A DNA stretch of 61,793 bases, filler included, from Dugesia japonica (lineage: Eukaryota), in the NCBI GenBank assembly GCA_001938525.1. It is 6 parts of 6 records of this genome, joined end to end, with 100 filler letters (N's around TTAATTAATTAA, not from the genome) between each part and the next. Parts side by side here need not be neighbours in the genome. Positions count along the whole stretch, not along the records: positions 48,837 to 61,793 come from MQRL01641042.1; 5 more parts are not named here. The stretch is one strand, 5' to 3'. Every line of letters begins with the position of its first letter. Position 1 is the first letter of the stretch. A model generated the notes under the pieces. It did no database searches and had not been told where the DNA came from. It was given only the letters and a program-made list of their open reading frames with translations. Both the position numbers and the translations under genes were made by a program. Below are positions 16,370 to 61,500 of the stretch, in pieces.

Positions 16370-19346
16370 ATACGAAAAGCTAACAAAGCAGAAATGATAG
16401 GAATAATTAAAGAAAAACAGAATGCAGAAATTTCGTATGATAAAATGCAAGGGAGACTCAGCATTTCAGTGATGATCAAGGGTGAACAGTTTGATTGTTT
16501 GTTGGATACAGGAGTAAGAAGAAATGTGGTGAACTTGAAAGGACTTAATAGACTCGGAGAAACAATGGTAAAGAAAATCTAGGAACGATTGCATTGTGCA
16601 AAGAACAGCTCATTAGAGACGATTGGAAAGATACGTTTCGAAGTTATAGTTTCAGAGGTGAGCAAGGATACTAACATTTATAATAGTAGAAAAATTAATA
16701 CCAGATCTAATTGGTGGAGTGGAATTTCAGAATACTTTTGGGTATCATCTTCAGAAAACGTGAAGGGTAGACATCAATAACCATCGAGAAAAATTTGTTT
16801 GCAACATCAAGGCAAAATTTGGAAGACAAATACAGTCGGGTAAAAGATTGAGAGATGCCATAGAGATTCTGGGAATTAACAAAGATTATAGATTGATTGT
16901 GATTATTCAGAATAATGAGGAAGTATTTATGTCGGATTTATGGGACATTGGATGTACACACTTAACGAAGCATCAAATAATCACGAAAGGAGGTCCAATT
17001 AACATAAAACCGTATCGCCAACCAATGAATCTAGAGGAAAAGATTGAAGATGCCATCAAGAATCTATATGATAATGATATCATCTGAAGTGTAATTTGCA
17101 ATGGAATACGCCATTAATATGTGTTTGGAAAAAGGAAAAAAAGGAAATGCGATTATGCTTAGACTTTAGATAGCTCAATGCAATAACAGAAAGACAAGAT
17201 TTTCCTATGCCAAATGTGGACGACATGCTAGATGCTTTGGAAGGTACGCAGTAGTTTAGCTCAATAGACTTGGGAAATGCATACTACCAAGTGAATCTCA
17301 GTGGCGATTCTCAAGAAAAGACAACTTTTTCGACCAAACAAGGGCAATTTTGTTTCAATAGAATGTCTTTTGAAATTGCAGTTGCACCAGGTACGTTCCG
17401 GGAAATGATGAATAACGTAATCGGAAAAATAAAAGGAGCGATGGTTTATTTAGATAATATTCTCATATTTACCGAAACAAAAGAGCAACACTATGAAATA
17501 ACCAATAAATTATTCACAGAAATTAAGAAAGCTGGTCTTAGAGTTAATCTGGAGAAATTTCAATTCAGGCGAAAGGAGATCAAATCTTTGGGACACGTTA
17601 TCAGTAAAGAAGGTTTCAAAACAGATCCAACTAAAATAGAAGCAATTAAGAACTTCGGTAAACCAAACTGCGTTAAGAAAATGAGAAGCTTTTTGGGAAC
17701 TTGCAATTACTATCGAAAGTTTATTAAAGATTATTCAAAGAAAGCTAGATTACTGGAACAGCTGTGTAGTTGGCCAAGTAACAAGTAAATTGAATAGATA
17801 AATGAATTAGTAGAAATTTTTAATGGAATGAAGGAGGCACTAATGATGTATCTAATATTATGTTTTCCAGATATATAAAGAAGCTTTATTTTGGACACGG
17901 ATGCGAGTTTTGATACGATTNNNNNNNNNNNNNNNNNNNNNNNNNNNNNNNNNNNNNNNNAGTAATTGCATATGAATCACACGCAATGACGAGTCATAAG
18001 AAAGGATATTGTATTAAACTGAAAGAATTGCTCGCAATTTACTACTTTTGTATTTATTTCAAACATTATTTATATGGAAAGAGATTTATCCTCAGAACAG
18101 ATCATGAAGCCATCGCGTTTATGCTAAGTACCAAGAATCCGATTACATCACAGTTTCAAACCTGGATTAATTATTTGAGCAGTTTAGATATAAAATTGGA
18201 ATAAAGAAAATGATTACTTCATACAAATCCTGATATGTTGTCAAGGAATAAATGTGGTACATGTACGCAATATTTAATGTCACATGAGGATCCCAAAAGT
18301 GGAAAATTAAAAACAATGATGTTAAATACAGTAGATATTCAAGAAAAACAGTGCACTTTTTGTGAGAATGATGAATAAACATGGATACCTGATGATAAAG
18401 TAAAAGAGGTTATAATGAGGATACACCATCTTTTGCGTCATGCTGGAGCAGAAAAAGTAGCTGCGTATATGAAGCATAAATATAACGTGAAACATTTGTG
18501 TAGCAAAGTACAAGAGATTGTCCGAAGTTGTATAACATGTCAAAAAGCTAAAGTGTTGACAAAAAAAATGAAGGAAGAAACAAATAAGACGCAACCAGCC
18601 AAAATGTTTGAACTGTTATTTATAGATGTATATGAACCACTGCTGGAGACAAGAGGTCTAAAGAATTATATTCTAGGTATAATAAACCAATGCAGTAAGT
18701 ATGAAGCCTTGATAGCAATGACGAGACAAGATGAAGATACCATCCGGAAAGTAATATTTGAGAAGTGGATTTAAAGTTCGGGTGTCCGAGAGAAATTCGA
18801 ATTGATTGTGGAAGAGCATTTGAGTCCAAATAAATGAAATATTTTGCAACTGAACATGGCATTACCCTCAGGTTTTTGAGTCCATATCATTATAAAACAA
18901 ATGAGCAAATCGAGAGGCAATTTAGAACTATGCGGGATACGAATAATGCAACGCTTAAAGAAAAGATAACTTCAGATTGGGCAGATGTATTACTAGAGAT
19001 AGAATTTACCTTAAATGCTACAAAACAGAAAACTATCGGGGAAAACCAAGCTGAAATCGTATTTGGGAAGAGAATAAGCAGAGAAAAATAGTATGAAACC
19101 AATACTCTAAGAGGGCACAAAGAACAAGAAGAATAAATATTGACCAAAAGACAATTCGAGATCGGTGATGAGGTCTTAGTGAAAGCTGAAACAAGAAACA
19201 AGAGCCAAGATCGTTATGAAGGACATTATAAGATCAAGTGGAAGATTCATGGCAGACTTTACATTCTGGAAGATACAAACGGGAAAAGACTTAAAAGAAA
19301 CGTGGAGAAGATCAAAATATTTCTTAAAAAGGGGGATAAAAGATAG
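16370..19346 (+). pseudogene. Ty3/gypsy pol (protease, RT, RNase H, integrase), multiply disrupted
   Basis: LLDTG (PR); PINIKPYR, RLCLDFR, AYYQV, MVYLDNILIF (RT); ILDTDAS, KELLAI, LRTDH (RH); H..HAG..C..C, SPYH..NEQIER, GDEVLVK (IN). The domain order is gypsy. Confidence 0.93.
19326..19336 (+). promoter_or_regulatory. Polypurine tract of the gypsy element; degenerate 3' LTR probably follows
   Basis: AAAAAGGGGGA at the end of the integrase. Confidence 0.6.
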
Positions 19347-42576: not shown

Positions 42577-44075
42577 CAGTGATTCTCAAGGTGGGCCTAA
42601 GAAAAATTTAAATTGGCCTGAAAATATAGGTGGGCTCAAATTTAATCTATTTAATTTAATTTAATCTATTCATATTGATACTAATTTTACTTTAAAATTT
42701 TAATTATTATAATTATTGAAAATCACATTAATATTTGTTCATGTTTTTTTCTGTGAAGTGTAGAAATGTAGTTTGTTCCTAATGTTTTTCATGGAATATG
42801 ATGTTTTCCTGGTAAAATATTATGTTTCTGTTGAAAGTGTTTGAAGATTTCACTTTCTTTCTGTTTGAGATGTGTGTTTGAGTTTTGATTTTTTTATTAT
42901 ATTTTGCATGATTTGGCTACATTTCTTATTAATAAAAGGTAATTTAATTATTGTGTTTGTCTTTTGTTGGATTTTATTAAATTTTGTATTCGAGGATAAG
43001 TACTTTGATACAATTCTATTTTGATAACCATAATTTAGAAATTTATTTTTTTATCAACCTGAAGGAAGTCAATCTCATTTCTACATTTGAAGATAGTCTT
43101 CCAGCTCTTATTCTTTCACCCTCGATTATTCCAATTTTCTGCCTGATGGTAGTATTACTACTCCAGAGTAATATATGTCCACTGTGAAATAATTTCATGT
43201 ATAACTGGGTATTAATCATTCACCAGGTTTCTTTTGGATAAAGGTGTCCAGAAAAGGAATTTGAAAGTCGATTGACTTCTATTAAGTGAATTTGAGGTTA
43301 TCATTAATCCTATTGGCTAGTTCCAAAGTATTTTCTAAACTAAAATTAGTAACAAAGAAAATATCATCTATATATTTGTATCCTCTTCTTAGCTTTGAGA
43401 ATAATTTTATGTTCAATGTAGTTCATAAAAACTATCGCTAAAATAGGATACAAATTGTTACCGATTGCCAAACCACTTTTTTGTTTAAAAAGTTGTTCAC
43501 AGATAAAAATGCTGTCAGAGAACAGACACAAATTGATCAGAGATTGGAAATCATTTTTAATGATTTCTGGAATATCTGTATGTTCTTTATAACTTTCAAA
43601 AAAATCACTTATAATATCAATGAAATTTTCAAGTTCTTCAATGGAAACTAATCCATAAAGATTTGTTACATCCAATGAGCCAAATCAATCATCGTTCTGC
43701 TAGTCTTAATTTTTAATTCGTTCAACAAACTCGTAACTATTTTTCAAATGTGCGGGAATAAAACTTAAGTGGTCTCAAAATTTTTTATCGAAGCCTTTTC
43801 TTTATTTTAATGAAATCTAACGGTTTAAATTTTATATACTTATATTTAACTATGTTTTTCACATTTTAAACATAAAAACGTCTTTTTGTAATATCTTAGA
43901 ACTTATTTCAGTAGTGTAACTCAATCTTGATAGATAAACCAATTTTTTAAAGTATTATTATTCACCAAATGAATAAAGTTTATTTTTAGTTTTGACTTTT
44001 AGGACCTATGTGGCGCTGGAATTCTTTAAGCGTTGAGAAGTTGATTGCAGAGGAAAAAAAGGTTGAGAAACATTG
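42577..44075. mobile_element. Non-autonomous hAT element hosting a Penelope fragment
   Basis: Termini CAGTGATTCTCAA / TTGAGAAACATTG; 8-bp flanks CACTAAAC / CACCAAAC (TSD with one mismatch). Confidence 0.7.
42720..43775 (-). mobile_element. Penelope-like RT fragment
   Basis: SLDVTNLY, FKQKSGLAIGNNLYPILA, IDDIFF, IPFLDT. Clearly homologous to 60640-61450. Confidence 0.85.
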
Positions 44076-48736: not shown

Positions 48737-48836
48737 NNNNNNNNNNNNNNNNNNNNNNNNNNNNNNNNNNNNNNNNNNNNTTAATTAATTAANNNNNNNN
48801 NNNNNNNNNNNNNNNNNNNNNNNNNNNNNNNNNNNN
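48737..48836. other. Artificial contig linker
   Basis: N44-TTAATTAATTAA-N44. Confidence 0.97.
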
Positions 48837-49228
48837 TTAGCCCCTGCCAGGGAGTTACGCACACTCCATAAATTGTTTTGGACAAAAGATGATAGGTGCT
48901 CGTAGGAGGGCAGTTGGGTGGTGGCGAATCCGAACACCGTGGGACTCTCTGACCACACACGCTCAACTCGTGGTATCGACGAAGAAACCGTAGTTGATTG
49001 CGGCGAAGGAGGATAATAGGGACGATCCTGCAGTGGACCGCGCCATTGATAGTAAGCCTCTCTCTCTTCGGCGTCCCAATTCCTATACTCTTCCGCTAAC
49101 TGTGGTGGCATATTGTAATTGTCAACCAGGACACCCGCGCTACGGTTATGTGAGTTTCGGTATTTGCGGAACGTCGACAACCCCGTTTGAATGTCCGTAG
49201 TGATTGTCCAGATATGCTCCATTATCAT
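48837..49228 (-). CDS. Orphan small protein C (63-aa shared domain + S/P-rich tail), runs to the contig edge
   Basis: Intact GC-richer ORF; tcttttgtAG|ttttATG; gapless homology to ORF 49396-49740. Confidence 0.75.
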
Positions 49229-49395
49229 AAAACTACAAAAGAGTTATGTTTTATTGTCTGTTAATAGAAATAAGTAAAATAATAGAACAATTATAAAACC
49301 AAAATTAAGAATTTCTAACGAAAAGCTAACAAAACACAGAATTTATTGGCTCTTTTTTAATACAACCACGATACCCATATTAATGAAAGAAGAGT

Positions 49396-49740
49396 TTAAC
49401 TATCTTCTCTCTCAATGCGGAAATGGGTACATTGCGACAATTGTCCGGGGGTAAGCGGAATCCATGCTGACCCCTCTCGCCATTGTAGGTGAACGTGATT
49501 AGTGATTGGGTCAACCGTCAAGACGCGGTGCAGGACTTCGCGTGATCGGTCGGGACCATTCCACTCATAATAGGCGTGACGCGCGATGGATGCTTGCTCT
49601 CGTTCCTGTTCGGATTCTCCGGGTGTTAGTACCGAAAAATCAACAGAGTCACCCGCATTGGGGTCATACGGATTGCGGTATCGTTTTACGACGATTTCTC
49701 CAGTGTACCGGTCCTGCAAAATCTCCCACTTGTATTCCAT
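49396..49740 (-). CDS. Orphan small protein B (114 aa; 63-aa shared domain + distinct tail)
   Basis: Intact ORF; CACTAAT branch-like motif, then tgttaAG|ttgATG; AATAAA at 49347-49342 followed by TCTGTGTTTTGTT; paralogue of ORF C. Confidence 0.75.
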   Translation of the reverse strand: MEYKWEILQDRYTGEIVVKRYRNPYDPNAGDSVDFSVLTPGESEQEREQASIARHAYYEWNGPDRSREVLHRVLTVDPITNHVHLQWREGSAWIPLTPGQLSQCTHFRIEREDS

Positions 49741-49855
49741 CAACTTAACAGTGCAGCAAAACATTAGTGATTATAATAAGAAAGCAAAGAAGAAAATTAT
49801 TAAAGTAAGTATTTTATTTATCATGAATAATAGAAATTGTTAAACCAAGATATAA

Positions 49856-50038
49856 TTAATCGGCATCCAAGTCTACCGGCACATCTAGCGGGAACATCTC
49901 GGCGAAGCATTGGAGGTCCGTCTCGTCCGGATGCTCTACAATCCCTTTGGTTAGATAATGCGCCACTAATTGTTTAGCTCGGACAGCTTGGCGCTGTTTT
50001 TTGATCCAGCGCAACATGTTACGGAGTTTGGCCGTCAT
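49856..50038 (-). CDS. Orphan small protein A (60 aa; basic N-half, acidic C-half)
   Basis: tatttttgtttcAG|ttgATG; MTAKLRNMLRWIKKQRQAVRAKQLVAHYLTKGIVEHPDETDLQCFAEMFPLDVPVDLDAD*; AATAAA at 49818-49813. Confidence 0.6.
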   Translation of the reverse strand: MTAKLRNMLRWIKKQRQAVRAKQLVAHYLTKGIVEHPDETDLQCFAEMFPLDVPVDLDAD

Positions 50039-52988
50039 CAACTGAAACAAAAATATAATGCCGGATTTATAGTTATGACTTAGAGAACCATCACACAACA
50101 GATAAGGGTCTGGTCTGGGAATTAGGAGTTATCTGTTGACAGACAGGCGGGGTAGTCATCGGTCAAAGAACCCGGCGACCCCTTGTTATTGGTCGGTTAG
50201 TAATATATTACTGGCTAGAACCAAGTCGTCGATCGATTTGACTCGGGAGCTCTTGGGATCTATTTTGTAATTAAACGAGAAATCGATACACGCATGCCAG
50301 GTCCGGATAATCGTAAACGTCATTATATATATACTGAGCCTTATTAACTGGTATGGCCAAGTTTATAATGGAGATCGGAAACGCATGGGGGTTTATCCAC
50401 TTTTTCGGAATACTAAATATTATCACGTCTAGAATAATAATGCTAATACTTATCATTCGGTCAATAGCCAAGCCAGGTTCGATGTGCTGGAAGCAGGCGT
50501 AATTATCGTCATGAGAAAATTGAAACCATTACCGCCTATAATAAGGCTAATATTAAGATTACTAGAAACAATGATAAGTAAGTTAGTACTAGATCGTGAA
50601 TCAACCACTTTATAATAGTGAGAAGAGTAGGACAATTAATAATAACTTGATTGATGTGGAATTCACGGTTACCACTCGACCTAGCAGTGAGAGAAGCTTC
50701 GTCGAAAAATCCTCTCTATTTCCCATAATATTTTGGTATAAAATTTTAATAACTCCGCTTCTTATCCACATAAATATTTCACTTCCAATAACGCGGCCGC
50801 ATCAATTAGTTAAATTAGTTATTCCTTATTTTAATATATAAGATTACGCATGGCCGTTATTTTAATTATAATTGTTGCTAATTAATGGGAATGTTAACAC
50901 CGATTTTACTGATTTAAAAATTACGCCTGTCGCTATAGGGATTATCCAAGGTCGTTTCCAGCTCACTGTGTGTATGCGCGTGATGTGTGTTGAGTTATTT
51001 GTCTTGTATACTGCGATCGTTAGTAGCATCGTAATTAGTCATGAGACATTGCTATAACACACGGTGAGTGTTGTCAGATAGATGCATTTAGTCTAGTTTA
51101 TGGCATGCTGAGGCTTTTTGTCAACGAATTTATCTCCAAGTGGAGTTAGTTTTTTCTCAGCTTTCATTATTACTGAACTAATGGTATTCGTAGGTCAGAA
51201 TAGTGATTTGCATCCACAGTGGATTTTAGTGTTAGCTCCTGATCGCTGCATCTCGGTTGTTTATCAACGCATAGGAATCTAATTGAAAATTCATCGCTCG
51301 CTGAACAACTATCTGTAGACTACTGCAAGGACAAATCACTTAATATCAGAGCTTAAAAGTTGATTCTGGAATTATAATATTTTATACTGACAACCGTAAT
51401 GAAATTTGGTTCTATTCTCGTGCGATAGATTTTAGATGTGATGCTTGGTCTTGTTAATTCCCGATGATGGAGTTTTTGGGATAGAATCGAGCCGATTAAC
51501 AGATAGATATTTATGTATGCTATAATGACGGATCAAGTGTGTTTTGTCGACTTATGATTTTTCCTCACGTAATGGTTATGCTGGAAATATATATTTTTTT
51601 TTAATTCTGGTTTCGGGGTAATTTTACTTTATTAATCAAATTTTTAGTTTATTTTTGAATCATTGATTTTAGTTAAGTAAAAATAAAGGAAAATATTCCC
51701 CTCGTACTCTCGTAGAAATCTTAATATAATAATCGCATTTTAGAATCCTCTCTTTTGTCTTCTGTCTAAAGTAAAACTAAAATTGAATTGGTAGACAAAA
51801 AATAGCTAAGTTTCCTGAGAGTCCGATTGGTACGTTCGATTATTTTCCTTATCGGAACATTAGAGTGATTATATTTAAAAAGGGGTAGCTCGTAGATTAT
51901 GATTATTCATTTTTATTTTATATAACATTATTAATTCAAATTACCAAACTCATTTTTATATAACCATTTATTAAAATTATTTCATAACAATAATAAAATT
52001 ACCAAAGCAAAAATTACTTATTTATAATCCTGGCGAAATCAACAATGAAAGTTAGACTCGTTCTGCAACGGTACGTAATGGGGGTCCTAGGTTTATCCGA
52101 AAAGCTTGATTGATAATCCAAATTCTGCGATGGCGTAATATGGCTATTCTTCTTCTAGAATAATTTTGATAGGAATCAGTTTATTATATCCCGACTCTTA
52201 CCGGTAGATTTTCCTTTCTTTTCTTTTTCACCAAATATGACTCAAGTAATTCGATAATGCCTTTTTAGGATTCGTGACCGATAGTTTTCTTATAATAAGA
52301 GTTTTCGTATCGGTTTCAAATTTTTGCGTATAATTCTACGACTTAGTAAATGAATAAAATGTGTGGTATTTTCATCTAAGATTGAAGGTCCTTTTATAGG
52401 ATTTTGTGTACACCACTACTGGTTCTTAGATTTGCCAGTATTNNNNNNNNNNNNNNNNNNNNNNNNNNNNNNNNNNNNNNNNNNNNNNNNNNNNNNNNNN
52501 NNNNNNNNNNNNNNNNNNNNNNNNNNNNNNNNNNNNNNNNNNNNNNNNNNNNNNNNNNNNNNNNNNNNNNNNNNNNNNNNNNNNNNNNNNNNNNNNNNNN
52601 NNNNNNNNNNNNNNNNNNNNNNNNNNNNNNNNTTCTGGAAGGTGGTATGTTTTTTCTTTGTAGGGTCCTAGTTGCACCGATGGATTCTCTTTCGGATTTT
52701 TCTTGTTTGATCGTTTTCTGACCACCAGGATTGGAGTTATTGGCCAGAAACATATTTTTTACCCATTTTCGTTTATTTTTGTTTTCAAATTAATTAATTT
52801 GTTGGTATTAATTAATTATTTTTTGTATTATTTTTTCTGGTTATTTCTTTTTGATTTAATAATTTCCTTTAATTATTGAGCATAATAACTTCCATTTTCT
52901 TTCCATACCTTTTTTTTTATTTTTCTTTTATTGTGGTATTTTGTGCTTCATCTTCTTCCTGGTTTATTAGGGGGTGTTTCACCCCAAC

Positions 52989-52989
<1 letters not shown>

Positions 52990-59739: not shown

Positions 59740-61500
59740 GATCAATGGTTACGTCCAACAATTATTCTCGCAATAATTGCAATTGTAAAACAATTATGGC
59801 TGTCGCCATCAACCGTGGACATTTTGATTTATTCAATGGTATAAAAATTTTCAAAATTCAAAATCACATTAAATTCTTAAGTGAATGTAAAAGAAGGAAA
59901 TTAATACCTTTTGGTTTGAGAATTCAAAACCAACTTGATAACACCTTTAATTGTCGCCAATTCTAATAATTGTCCTAATCACGTTTTCAGTTGTTGACTT
60001 TTCTTCGAAAAAAACTTTTTAGTGAAATTAATTATCTGCTAAAAAAATAAACCTCTATCTTTTCCTCTTAATAAATTAGATCAAGAAACGTTTAACAAAT
60101 ATAAAGAAATAAGGTCTCGTAATATTCAAAATGAAATAAGAATTCTACTTACTAAAAAATCTAAAACTGAAGACAATCAAAATCAAAATAAATTCAAATC
60201 AAAGTTTTTGGACAACTGTTCTTCCTTTCAAAAATCTTACTGAACATACATTCACCGACAAACAAATAAATTTACTTAACAAAGGTCCGAGCTACATCCC
60301 GGCCAATTCAAACGTTTCTGAATCATCAAATATTGCAATGATTAAACCTTCATTTACAGATTAAAATGTTAATCAAATAAATTAGAAAATACATCAAATG
60401 AAACATTTAATGATTCCCAAATTTTTTTCATCGAAATGGAATTATACACAAGCACTCAGACGCACTATACAAACTAAAAATTCTCCTATTATAAAAGATG
60501 ATAACAACATTAAGGATCTTAAATTTAAACTATTACAAACATATAAACACAACAAGGATAATAATTTAAAAAGTAATGAAAATCAAATTATCAAAGAAAA
60601 TAAAAATTTAAAATCAATTCATTTAAAATAAAAGCTTCGATCATGAACTTCATTGAAAATGAAATAATTCTTAAATTAAACAAGAAAATTCATCTATGGT
60701 TTAGATACATAGATGATATTTTCTTTGTAACTAAATTTTCTTTAGAGAACATTTTAGAATTAGCCAATAGTATAAATGATAAAATTAAATTCCCTTTAGA
60801 GAAATCAATTGACTTCCAGATTCGTTTTCTGGACACTTTAATCCAAAATAAACCTGGTGAAATATTAACTACCCAATTATATATGAAACCATTTCACAGT
60901 GGACATGCTAGTATATTATCTTAGAGTAGTAATACTACTACCAGCCAGAAAATTGGTATAATTAAAGGTGAAAGAATTCGAGCTGAGAGACTATCTTCAA
61001 ATGAAGAAATGAAATTGATTTCTCTCAAGTTGATAAAAAATAAATTAAAAAATAATGGCTGCTAAATAAAATTATATCAAAAAATTTATCTTTAAATACA
61101 AAACAAAATAAAATCAAACCAAAAATCAACACAGTTATTAAATTACAGAAACCAAGACAAAACTTTTGTGGTCCCAAATTCATTTGTGATGATAGAAATA
61201 TATGTAATAAGAAAATTGTCACCTATAAAATAACACACACCGTTTGTCAAGAAACATATATACGTGAAACATCCAGAACCATCCGAACAAGAATTAAGGA
61301 ATATCTGAAACAAGAAGAAATTGAAGTCTTCAAACACTTTCAACACAAACATAAAATTTCACCAGAACAACATCATATAACATGGAAAACAATAGGAACA
61401 GGCTACATTTCTAAACTACATAGAAAAAAAACATGAAGAAATACTAATCAAAGAAAACAATCCNAAAATAAATACAATATCGAAATATCGAATTGTTATC
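59740..61500 (+). mobile_element. Penelope-like element with an internal deletion of most of the RT
   Basis: N-terminal HIKFLSECKRRKLIPFGLRI and LLNKGPSY; WFRYIDDIFF, FLDTL, LYMKPFHSG; GIY-YIG-like VTYKITHTVCQETYIRETSRTIRTRIKE. Confidence 0.85.

Follow-up and report, generated by a model that had tools for sequence, protein, structure and literature searches.

A 61,793-nucleotide (nt) stretch of the Dugesia japonica genome (GenBank assembly GCA_001938525.1; hereafter the window) was analyzed. It consists of six parts, with a 100-base linker at each of the five joins (at 12942, 21470, 30994, 40095 and 48737; each made up of 44 N, a 12-mer that puts stops into all frames and another 44 N), and since these joins are artificial, neighbours across a linker may be unrelated. 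At the left end of the last part, contig MQRL01641042.1, lies a cassette of three small open reading frames (ORFs A, B and C), all on the minus strand and each directly behind an acceptor-like AG, with AG/TTG-ATG (the slash marks the predicted junction) before A and B and AG/TTTT-ATG before C; a segment resembling a long terminal repeat (LTR) lies upstream (Table 1). An earlier note on this DNA had described such a cassette, and its acceptor and start positions, the AATAAA hexamers behind A and B and the CACTAAT before B were all found where it placed them. The T-rich tracts that it put at about 70 and 110 nt measure 69 nt (A to B) and 109 nt (B to C) from hexamer to next AG, the stop-to-ATG spacers (115 and 167 nt) contain 46-49% T, and the ORFs are, as it said, richer in G+C (~50%) than the spacers (22-24%). 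Its statement that each ORF is complete holds for A and B; C is still open at 48836, where the linker starts, the nearby TAA being out of frame, and sequence left of that linker need not adjoin the cassette. We favour, with a probability of about 0.55, the reading that an LTR retroelement carries A-C as accessory genes, probably in antisense, and expresses them from one LTR promoter through a shared cis-spliced leader and alternative last exons.

Table 1. Features of the cassette and of the segment upstream of it, in window coordinates
Feature	Position	Strand	Remarks
ORF A	49856..50038	-	60 amino acids (aa), ATG 50038, stop 49856; orphan; two predicted helices, N-terminal half basic
ORF B	49396..49740	-	114 aa, ATG 49740, stop 49396; residues 1-67 are the domain common to C and P0002
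ORF C	48837..49228	-	at least 130 aa, ATG 49228; paralogue of B; interrupted by assembly linker
Acceptor A	50039..50058	-	predicted site; T-rich tract, CAG, first exon base 50041
Acceptor B	49741..49769	-	predicted site; branch-point-like CACTAAT (49769-49763), weak pyrimidine tract, AAG, first exon base 49743
Acceptor C	49229..49248	-	predicted site; TCTTTTGTAG, first exon base 49232
AATAAA 3' of ORF A	49813..49818	-	candidate poly(A) signal
AATAAA 3' of ORF B	49342..49347	-	candidate poly(A) signal
LTR-like segment	50892..52989	+	TGTT...AACA, 2.1 kb, internal gap, ends at (ATA)n microsatellite
Candidate polypurine tract	50884..50891	+	AATGGGAA, 8 nt, directly before TGTT 50892
TATA box	52391..52398	-	TATAAAAG; faces cassette, in high-copy core of LTR-like segment
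Predicted leader exon, ATG-free	52202..52367	-	166 nt, ends at donor CCG/GTAAGA (GT 52201); start placed by TATA spacing
Donor ACA/GTGAGC of earlier note	50961..50969	-	GT 50966, 6 of 9 consensus

Proteins of the cassette

ORFs B and C share 37% identity over 67 aa (E 2e-12), and this conservation is specific to the present frame. By codon position, 31, 40 and 22 of 67 nucleotides are identical (p 0.007); different codons are used at 14 of the 22 shared degenerate residues; and the summed BLOSUM score is 111 in the coding frame, whereas none of the other five, which contain stops, exceeds 38. Paralogy together with frame-specific conservation indicates that B and C are the products of a tandem duplication and have been retained as proteins in the present frame; judged by their sequences, they are paralogues under coding constraint and small real genes. 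The start of C that aligns with Met 1 of B is its Met 3 (49222).

A search of 1.84 billion representatives with ORF B gave three matches, among which P0002, a 94-aa protein from a 512-bp contig (E 7e-8), is the sole credible relative; it also matches ORF C in a pairwise comparison (E 3e-21). The other two were dropped as noise, P0001 being a repetitive phytoplasma protein with no stretch passing and P0003 a low-complexity repeat. Homologue searches found no relative among 5 candidates near the length of B or 186 longer candidates for C, ORF A not being queried there, and a search with profile A1 returned P0002 alone among 218. No relative of the cassette was found in viral contig scans or in one metagenome scan, and five metagenome motif matches were rejected as chance (best tblastn E 0.2). 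No Pfam family reached the cut-off for A, B or C (C being incomplete), PDB sequences were blank, and so was the Atlas (top values 0.89 and 0.79, leads only). B, C and P0002 thus appear to form an orphan family with P0002 as its one outside relative. In the model of ORF B (predicted local distance difference test, pLDDT, 70; predicted template modelling score, pTM, 0.47), the shared domain forms a hairpin and a long helix predicted with confidence; the model of ORF A scored lower (pLDDT 66, pTM 0.26). A fold search with the B model, the A model not being searched, gave no Foldseek match at E 0.001 in the viral and pdb sets and a best VIA Z of 3.4, which is no evidence of a new fold. By analogy with the accessory proteins of retroviruses, the proteins may be small regulators inside the cell that act on the element or on host silencing, which is a guess.

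The repeat and its LTR-like segment

The cassette is part of a repeat present at high copy. In DNA run X1, 2414 contigs aligned on 48837-52440, most of them 90-95% alike, and contigs identical to the present copy had a depth of 12-19. Summed contig depth, which is not copy number, reached 5,600-39,000 in the ORF bins (5,600-9,300 over A; 12,000-39,000 over C, the deepest) and 430-1,240 at the listed spacer positions, and this excess of ORFs over spacers is as expected from coding constraint among diverged copies. Between 50047 and 50893, upstream of A, summed depth is 47-138; over 50894-52345, most of the LTR-like segment, it is 130-660; and it averages 14,836 in the bin 52346-52440. As depth at 52361-52364 is 850-960, the deep core of this bin lies over its TATA side. 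The abundance indicates many copies, which are presumably dispersed. Two joints in the DNA contigs (48871-48945 and 49741-49893) were rejected as splices, each being represented by one contig of depth 5 and lacking GT-AG ends.

The segment has the TG...CA ends of an LTR (TGTT 50892 and AACA 52989, presumed to pair), and the first of these falls within the interval over which depth rises about sixfold, from 41 at 50713 to 270 at 50938. The window holds no other copy of it. A minus-strand primer binding site was looked for after the segment, where TTCCCATT stands without TGG; this bears on orientation only. With a purine tract on the inner side and no TGG on the minus side, a 3' LTR of a plus-strand element, to which A-C would be antisense, is favoured as roughly twice as likely as a 5' LTR followed by the genes and then gag. 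The carrier repeat is likely an LTR retroelement.

A perfect 6-bp hairpin at 52971-52985 stops 4 nt short of the right end of the segment. Hairpins near the right end are also a feature of rolling-circle elements.

Predicted expression of the cassette

Within the LTR-like segment, a TATA box faces the cassette, and an ATG-free stretch begins ~30 nt downstream of it and runs to a donor. Absence of ATG is seen in 8% of composition-matched stretches, and the whole arrangement of TATA box, ATG-free stretch and donor is found at 2 of the 128 TATA-like words that the window contains. Four donor-like sites lie on the cassette strand in the 3 kb upstream, and that at 52201 is tied best at 7 of 9 consensus positions; the donor that the earlier note proposed near 50967 exists as a GT at 50966 but is one of these four and not the best. 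Because the phases of the acceptors differ, an ATG-free leader would suit all three. An AATAAA also lies at 52185 on the minus strand, 16 nt downstream of the predicted donor. Some retroviral LTRs suppress a poly(A) signal by means of a donor placed just ahead of it.

In the proposed mechanism, transcription would start near 52367 on the minus strand from the TATA promoter inside the LTR, U1 would use the donor at 52201, the acceptor chosen (A, B or C) would set the last exon, and the AATAAA of that exon would end the message, so that each mRNA would carry one ORF behind the ATG-free leader. The unit of acceptor, ORF and poly(A) signal would have been multiplied by tandem duplication, as in B and C. 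If the segment is the 3' LTR of a plus-strand element, the genes would be antisense, which would leave the cassette poly(A) signals unable to cut the genomic RNA; if it is a 5' LTR, the genes would sit ahead of gag. The earlier note had proposed a mobile or viral element that expresses a battery of small proteins from one promoter by host splicing, and had offered two mechanisms, a spliced leader (SL) operon and a shared cis leader. High copy, the B/C paralogy and the adjoining LTR-like segment support a mobile element, while splicing is predicted only; the cis leader fits better, with its TATA box, ATG-free stretch and donor at 52398-52201 instead of 50967, and the SL operon was left without support.

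RNA records that match are few: 7 of 13.6 million in run X13, 3 of 11.6 million in X16 and 0 of 10.5 million in X12, the runs possibly being from another strain and X12 being no test. With almost no reads, both the cis and the SL mechanism stay hypothetical.

Several points weigh against our reading. All 10 RNA reads are partial and less than 95% alike, with none at an acceptor and no junction, leader or poly(A) end among them. Those on ORF A, from diverged copies, carry their first mate on the minus strand without exception; if the libraries are of the usual stranded kind, this means plus-strand RNA, which is compatible with genomic RNA of the element or host read-through and is no evidence of an ORF A message. 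In the contig, which ends at 48837, neither gag and pol (48837-52989 covered) nor a second LTR or a target-site duplication was found. The A-richness of the minus strand of the LTR-like segment, a trait shared with the sense strand of the Gypsy remnant in the window, favours the opposite orientation. The purine tract is just 8 nt long, and the rule, which finds a comparable tract before 3 of the 808 TGTT sites of the window, 50892 included, is post hoc. Depth at the donor region is moderate (240-295) and does not establish family-wide conservation of the leader. Acceptor B is weak, and two further acceptor-like sites, at 50680 and 50561, lie on the cassette strand. Variation among copies was read from 40 of 226 substitutions and 12 of 22 indels. 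Among these, all five cassette indels fall in spacers and none of the nine ORF substitutions introduces a stop, both of which favour our reading; the split of these substitutions into 4 silent and 5 missense is no test of selection. None of the variants read falls in an AG or AATAAA word, and indels of other copies flank the ORF B hexamer.

Three other explanations were weighed, all of them unlikely. The one that survives best accepts the ORFs as real accessory genes and takes the AG and AATAAA words to be incidental in T/A-rich spacers, with expression from short promoters of their own or as one polycistronic RNA. The weakness of acceptor B suits it, as does the fact that conservation of AG and AATAAA across copies is not readable from the listed variants, and the antisense gene of maize Grande has its own promoter (PMC7264820). 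AATAAA occurs in 16.5% of all 63-nt windows, and ~5% of the shuffled versions of each spacer have one within their first 63 nt; a third AATAAA at 49255, just before acceptor C, fits no role in the model. Opposed to this, all three cassette ATGs stand 3-4 nt behind an acceptor-like AG, as compared to 96 of 1954 ATGs in the window (4.9%), a chance of ~1e-4 under a rule that is loose and was fixed after the sites had been seen. On the coding strand, the spacers show a T skew that the region upstream of the cassette lacks, and no TATA-linked promoter was seen within the 115-167-nt spacers. Acceptor and AATAAA occur together in 1 of 80 gap-free ORFs of at least 50 aa counted from the first ATG, namely ORF A, in a count that leaves out B (with an additional upstream in-frame ATG at 49764) and C (open at the linker). 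A second acceptor-like site, TTTCTATTAACAG, lies with the third AATAAA within 49250-49275 on the minus strand, just 5' of acceptor C.

Somewhat less probable is a carrier other than an LTR element, the genes and splice signals being real but borne by a different kind of transposon, by an endogenous DNA virus or by a host gene cluster that has been amplified and uses alternative last exons. Neither gag-pol nor a second LTR being seen in the contig would agree with this, as would the hairpin near the right end and the ~40-fold drop in depth just upstream of acceptor A, by which the high-copy and LTR-like parts could be separate units. TG...CA ends, purine tract and depth step coincide, however, the TATA core has a depth of the same order as the ORFs, and the viral contigs hold no relative.

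Least probable is that a high-copy animal retroelement bears its own orphan-gene operon, grown by tandem duplication of acceptor, ORF and poly(A) signal, in which a single transcript would be cleaved at every poly(A) site and host SL trans-splicing would cap each downstream ORF: its hexamer-to-acceptor distances are near the ~100-bp intergenic peak of Macrostomum and C. elegans operons (PMC8629364), and the AUG in which all reported flatworm SLs end (PMC12582326) would be in frame with A and B, but this AUG would open a 29-codon frame across the start of C and out of register with it, the acceptors reportedly required to lack an upstream donor (PMC8629364) have predicted same-strand donors upstream, one of them behind a TATA box, and no leader was seen on RNA reads, although none of the 10 reached an acceptor.

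Setting and comparison with known systems

The window is AT-rich (14-43% G+C per kb) and full of transposon remnants; Rfam and tRNA scans of it were empty. A decayed Ty3/gypsy remnant lies at 16764-18771 (plus strand), with RVT_1 (E 9e-13) and an integrase zinc finger. Polinton-like remnants at 26847-29288 and 10982-12375 (both minus) include type B DNA polymerase (E 4e-5), a C2H2 zinc-finger ORF and a piece of rve integrase, together with a packaging-ATPase-like frame judged by eye. Two broken mariner/Tc1-type transposases (HTH_48, Transposase_1, DDE_3) occupy 33712-36773 (minus), and inverted copies, 83-85% alike, at 42744-43684 and 60604-61433 resemble Penelope-like reverse transcriptase/GIY-YIG by eye, with no Pfam match. 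A histone-fold fragment at 32718-32888 (plus; CENP-T_C, Histone) is probably a piece of a histone pseudogene, and the exons within 2340-5318 (plus), which have normal AG/GT ends, encode a host proline-rich protein in which Y-x-K-P motifs recur.

It is already known that LTR elements can carry extra ORFs, usually one or two each and without an assigned function. The published accounts covered described no transposable element using SL trans-splicing and no spliced small-ORF battery; subscription journals, Repbase and Grohme et al. 2018, whose Burro ORFs could already include such ORFs, were outside this coverage. If our reading is true, at least three small genes fed by one LTR promoter would amount to complex-retrovirus-style expression in an invertebrate retroelement, and a new protein family (B, C and P0002) would be maintained in very many copies. 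The cassette proteins would be candidates for element-encoded regulators or anti-silencing proteins, and the cassette model provides exact predicted junctions for reverse transcription PCR. A leader that was the host SL would be much more surprising.

SL trans-spliced operons of nematodes and flatworms likewise have a poly(A) signal, a short U-rich spacer and an acceptor right before the next ATG (PMC8629364, PMC5832876), and the spacing of the cassette is near their ~100 nt between genes both from stop to ATG and from hexamer to AG; those operons mostly carry conserved host genes, in contrast to a repeat with an upstream cis donor. The giant Gypsy elements of planarians named Burro share high copy, accessory ORFs and an AT-rich invertebrate genome with the cassette (PMC6431247), but the MATH, BIR, BCL2, ankyrin and env-like domains reported for them there were not found in A, B or C, and PMC11410931 and PMC8532177 add nothing on this point. 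Burro elements are also marked by a giant gag-env-pol polyprotein, whose counterpart would lie in internal sequence that the contig lacks. Closer in arrangement are the Ty3/gypsy plant elements Grande, RIRE2 and Retand, which have additional antisense ORFs between pol and the 3' LTR, kept in many copies (PMC7264820, PMC11963269). As in these, the cassette ORFs are orphan-like, present in many copies and, in the favoured orientation, antisense beside a 3' LTR. The plant ORFs are mostly over 600 bp, with TRP28 in Retand and an internal promoter in Grande, whereas those of the cassette span 60-130+ aa, have no Pfam domain, include tandem paralogues and each follow an acceptor; TRP28 (PF04195), the Retand-type mark, had no match at the Pfam cut-off in A, B or C. 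The proposed expression most resembles that of HBZ in human T-cell leukaemia virus type 1 (HTLV-1) and APH-2 in HTLV-2, where antisense RNA that starts in the 3' LTR joins an LTR exon to an internal ORF by splicing and uses a poly(A) signal of its own (PMC3185765). There is no sequence relation, and the host of the cassette is an invertebrate; HBZ and APH-2 are each, in that account, a single gene with its ATG in exon 1, while the cassette has at least three acceptors, ORFs with their own ATGs and an ATG-free leader. What the two would have in common is an antisense start in the LTR, a splice to an internal ORF and a poly(A) signal of its own, all three predicted in the cassette.

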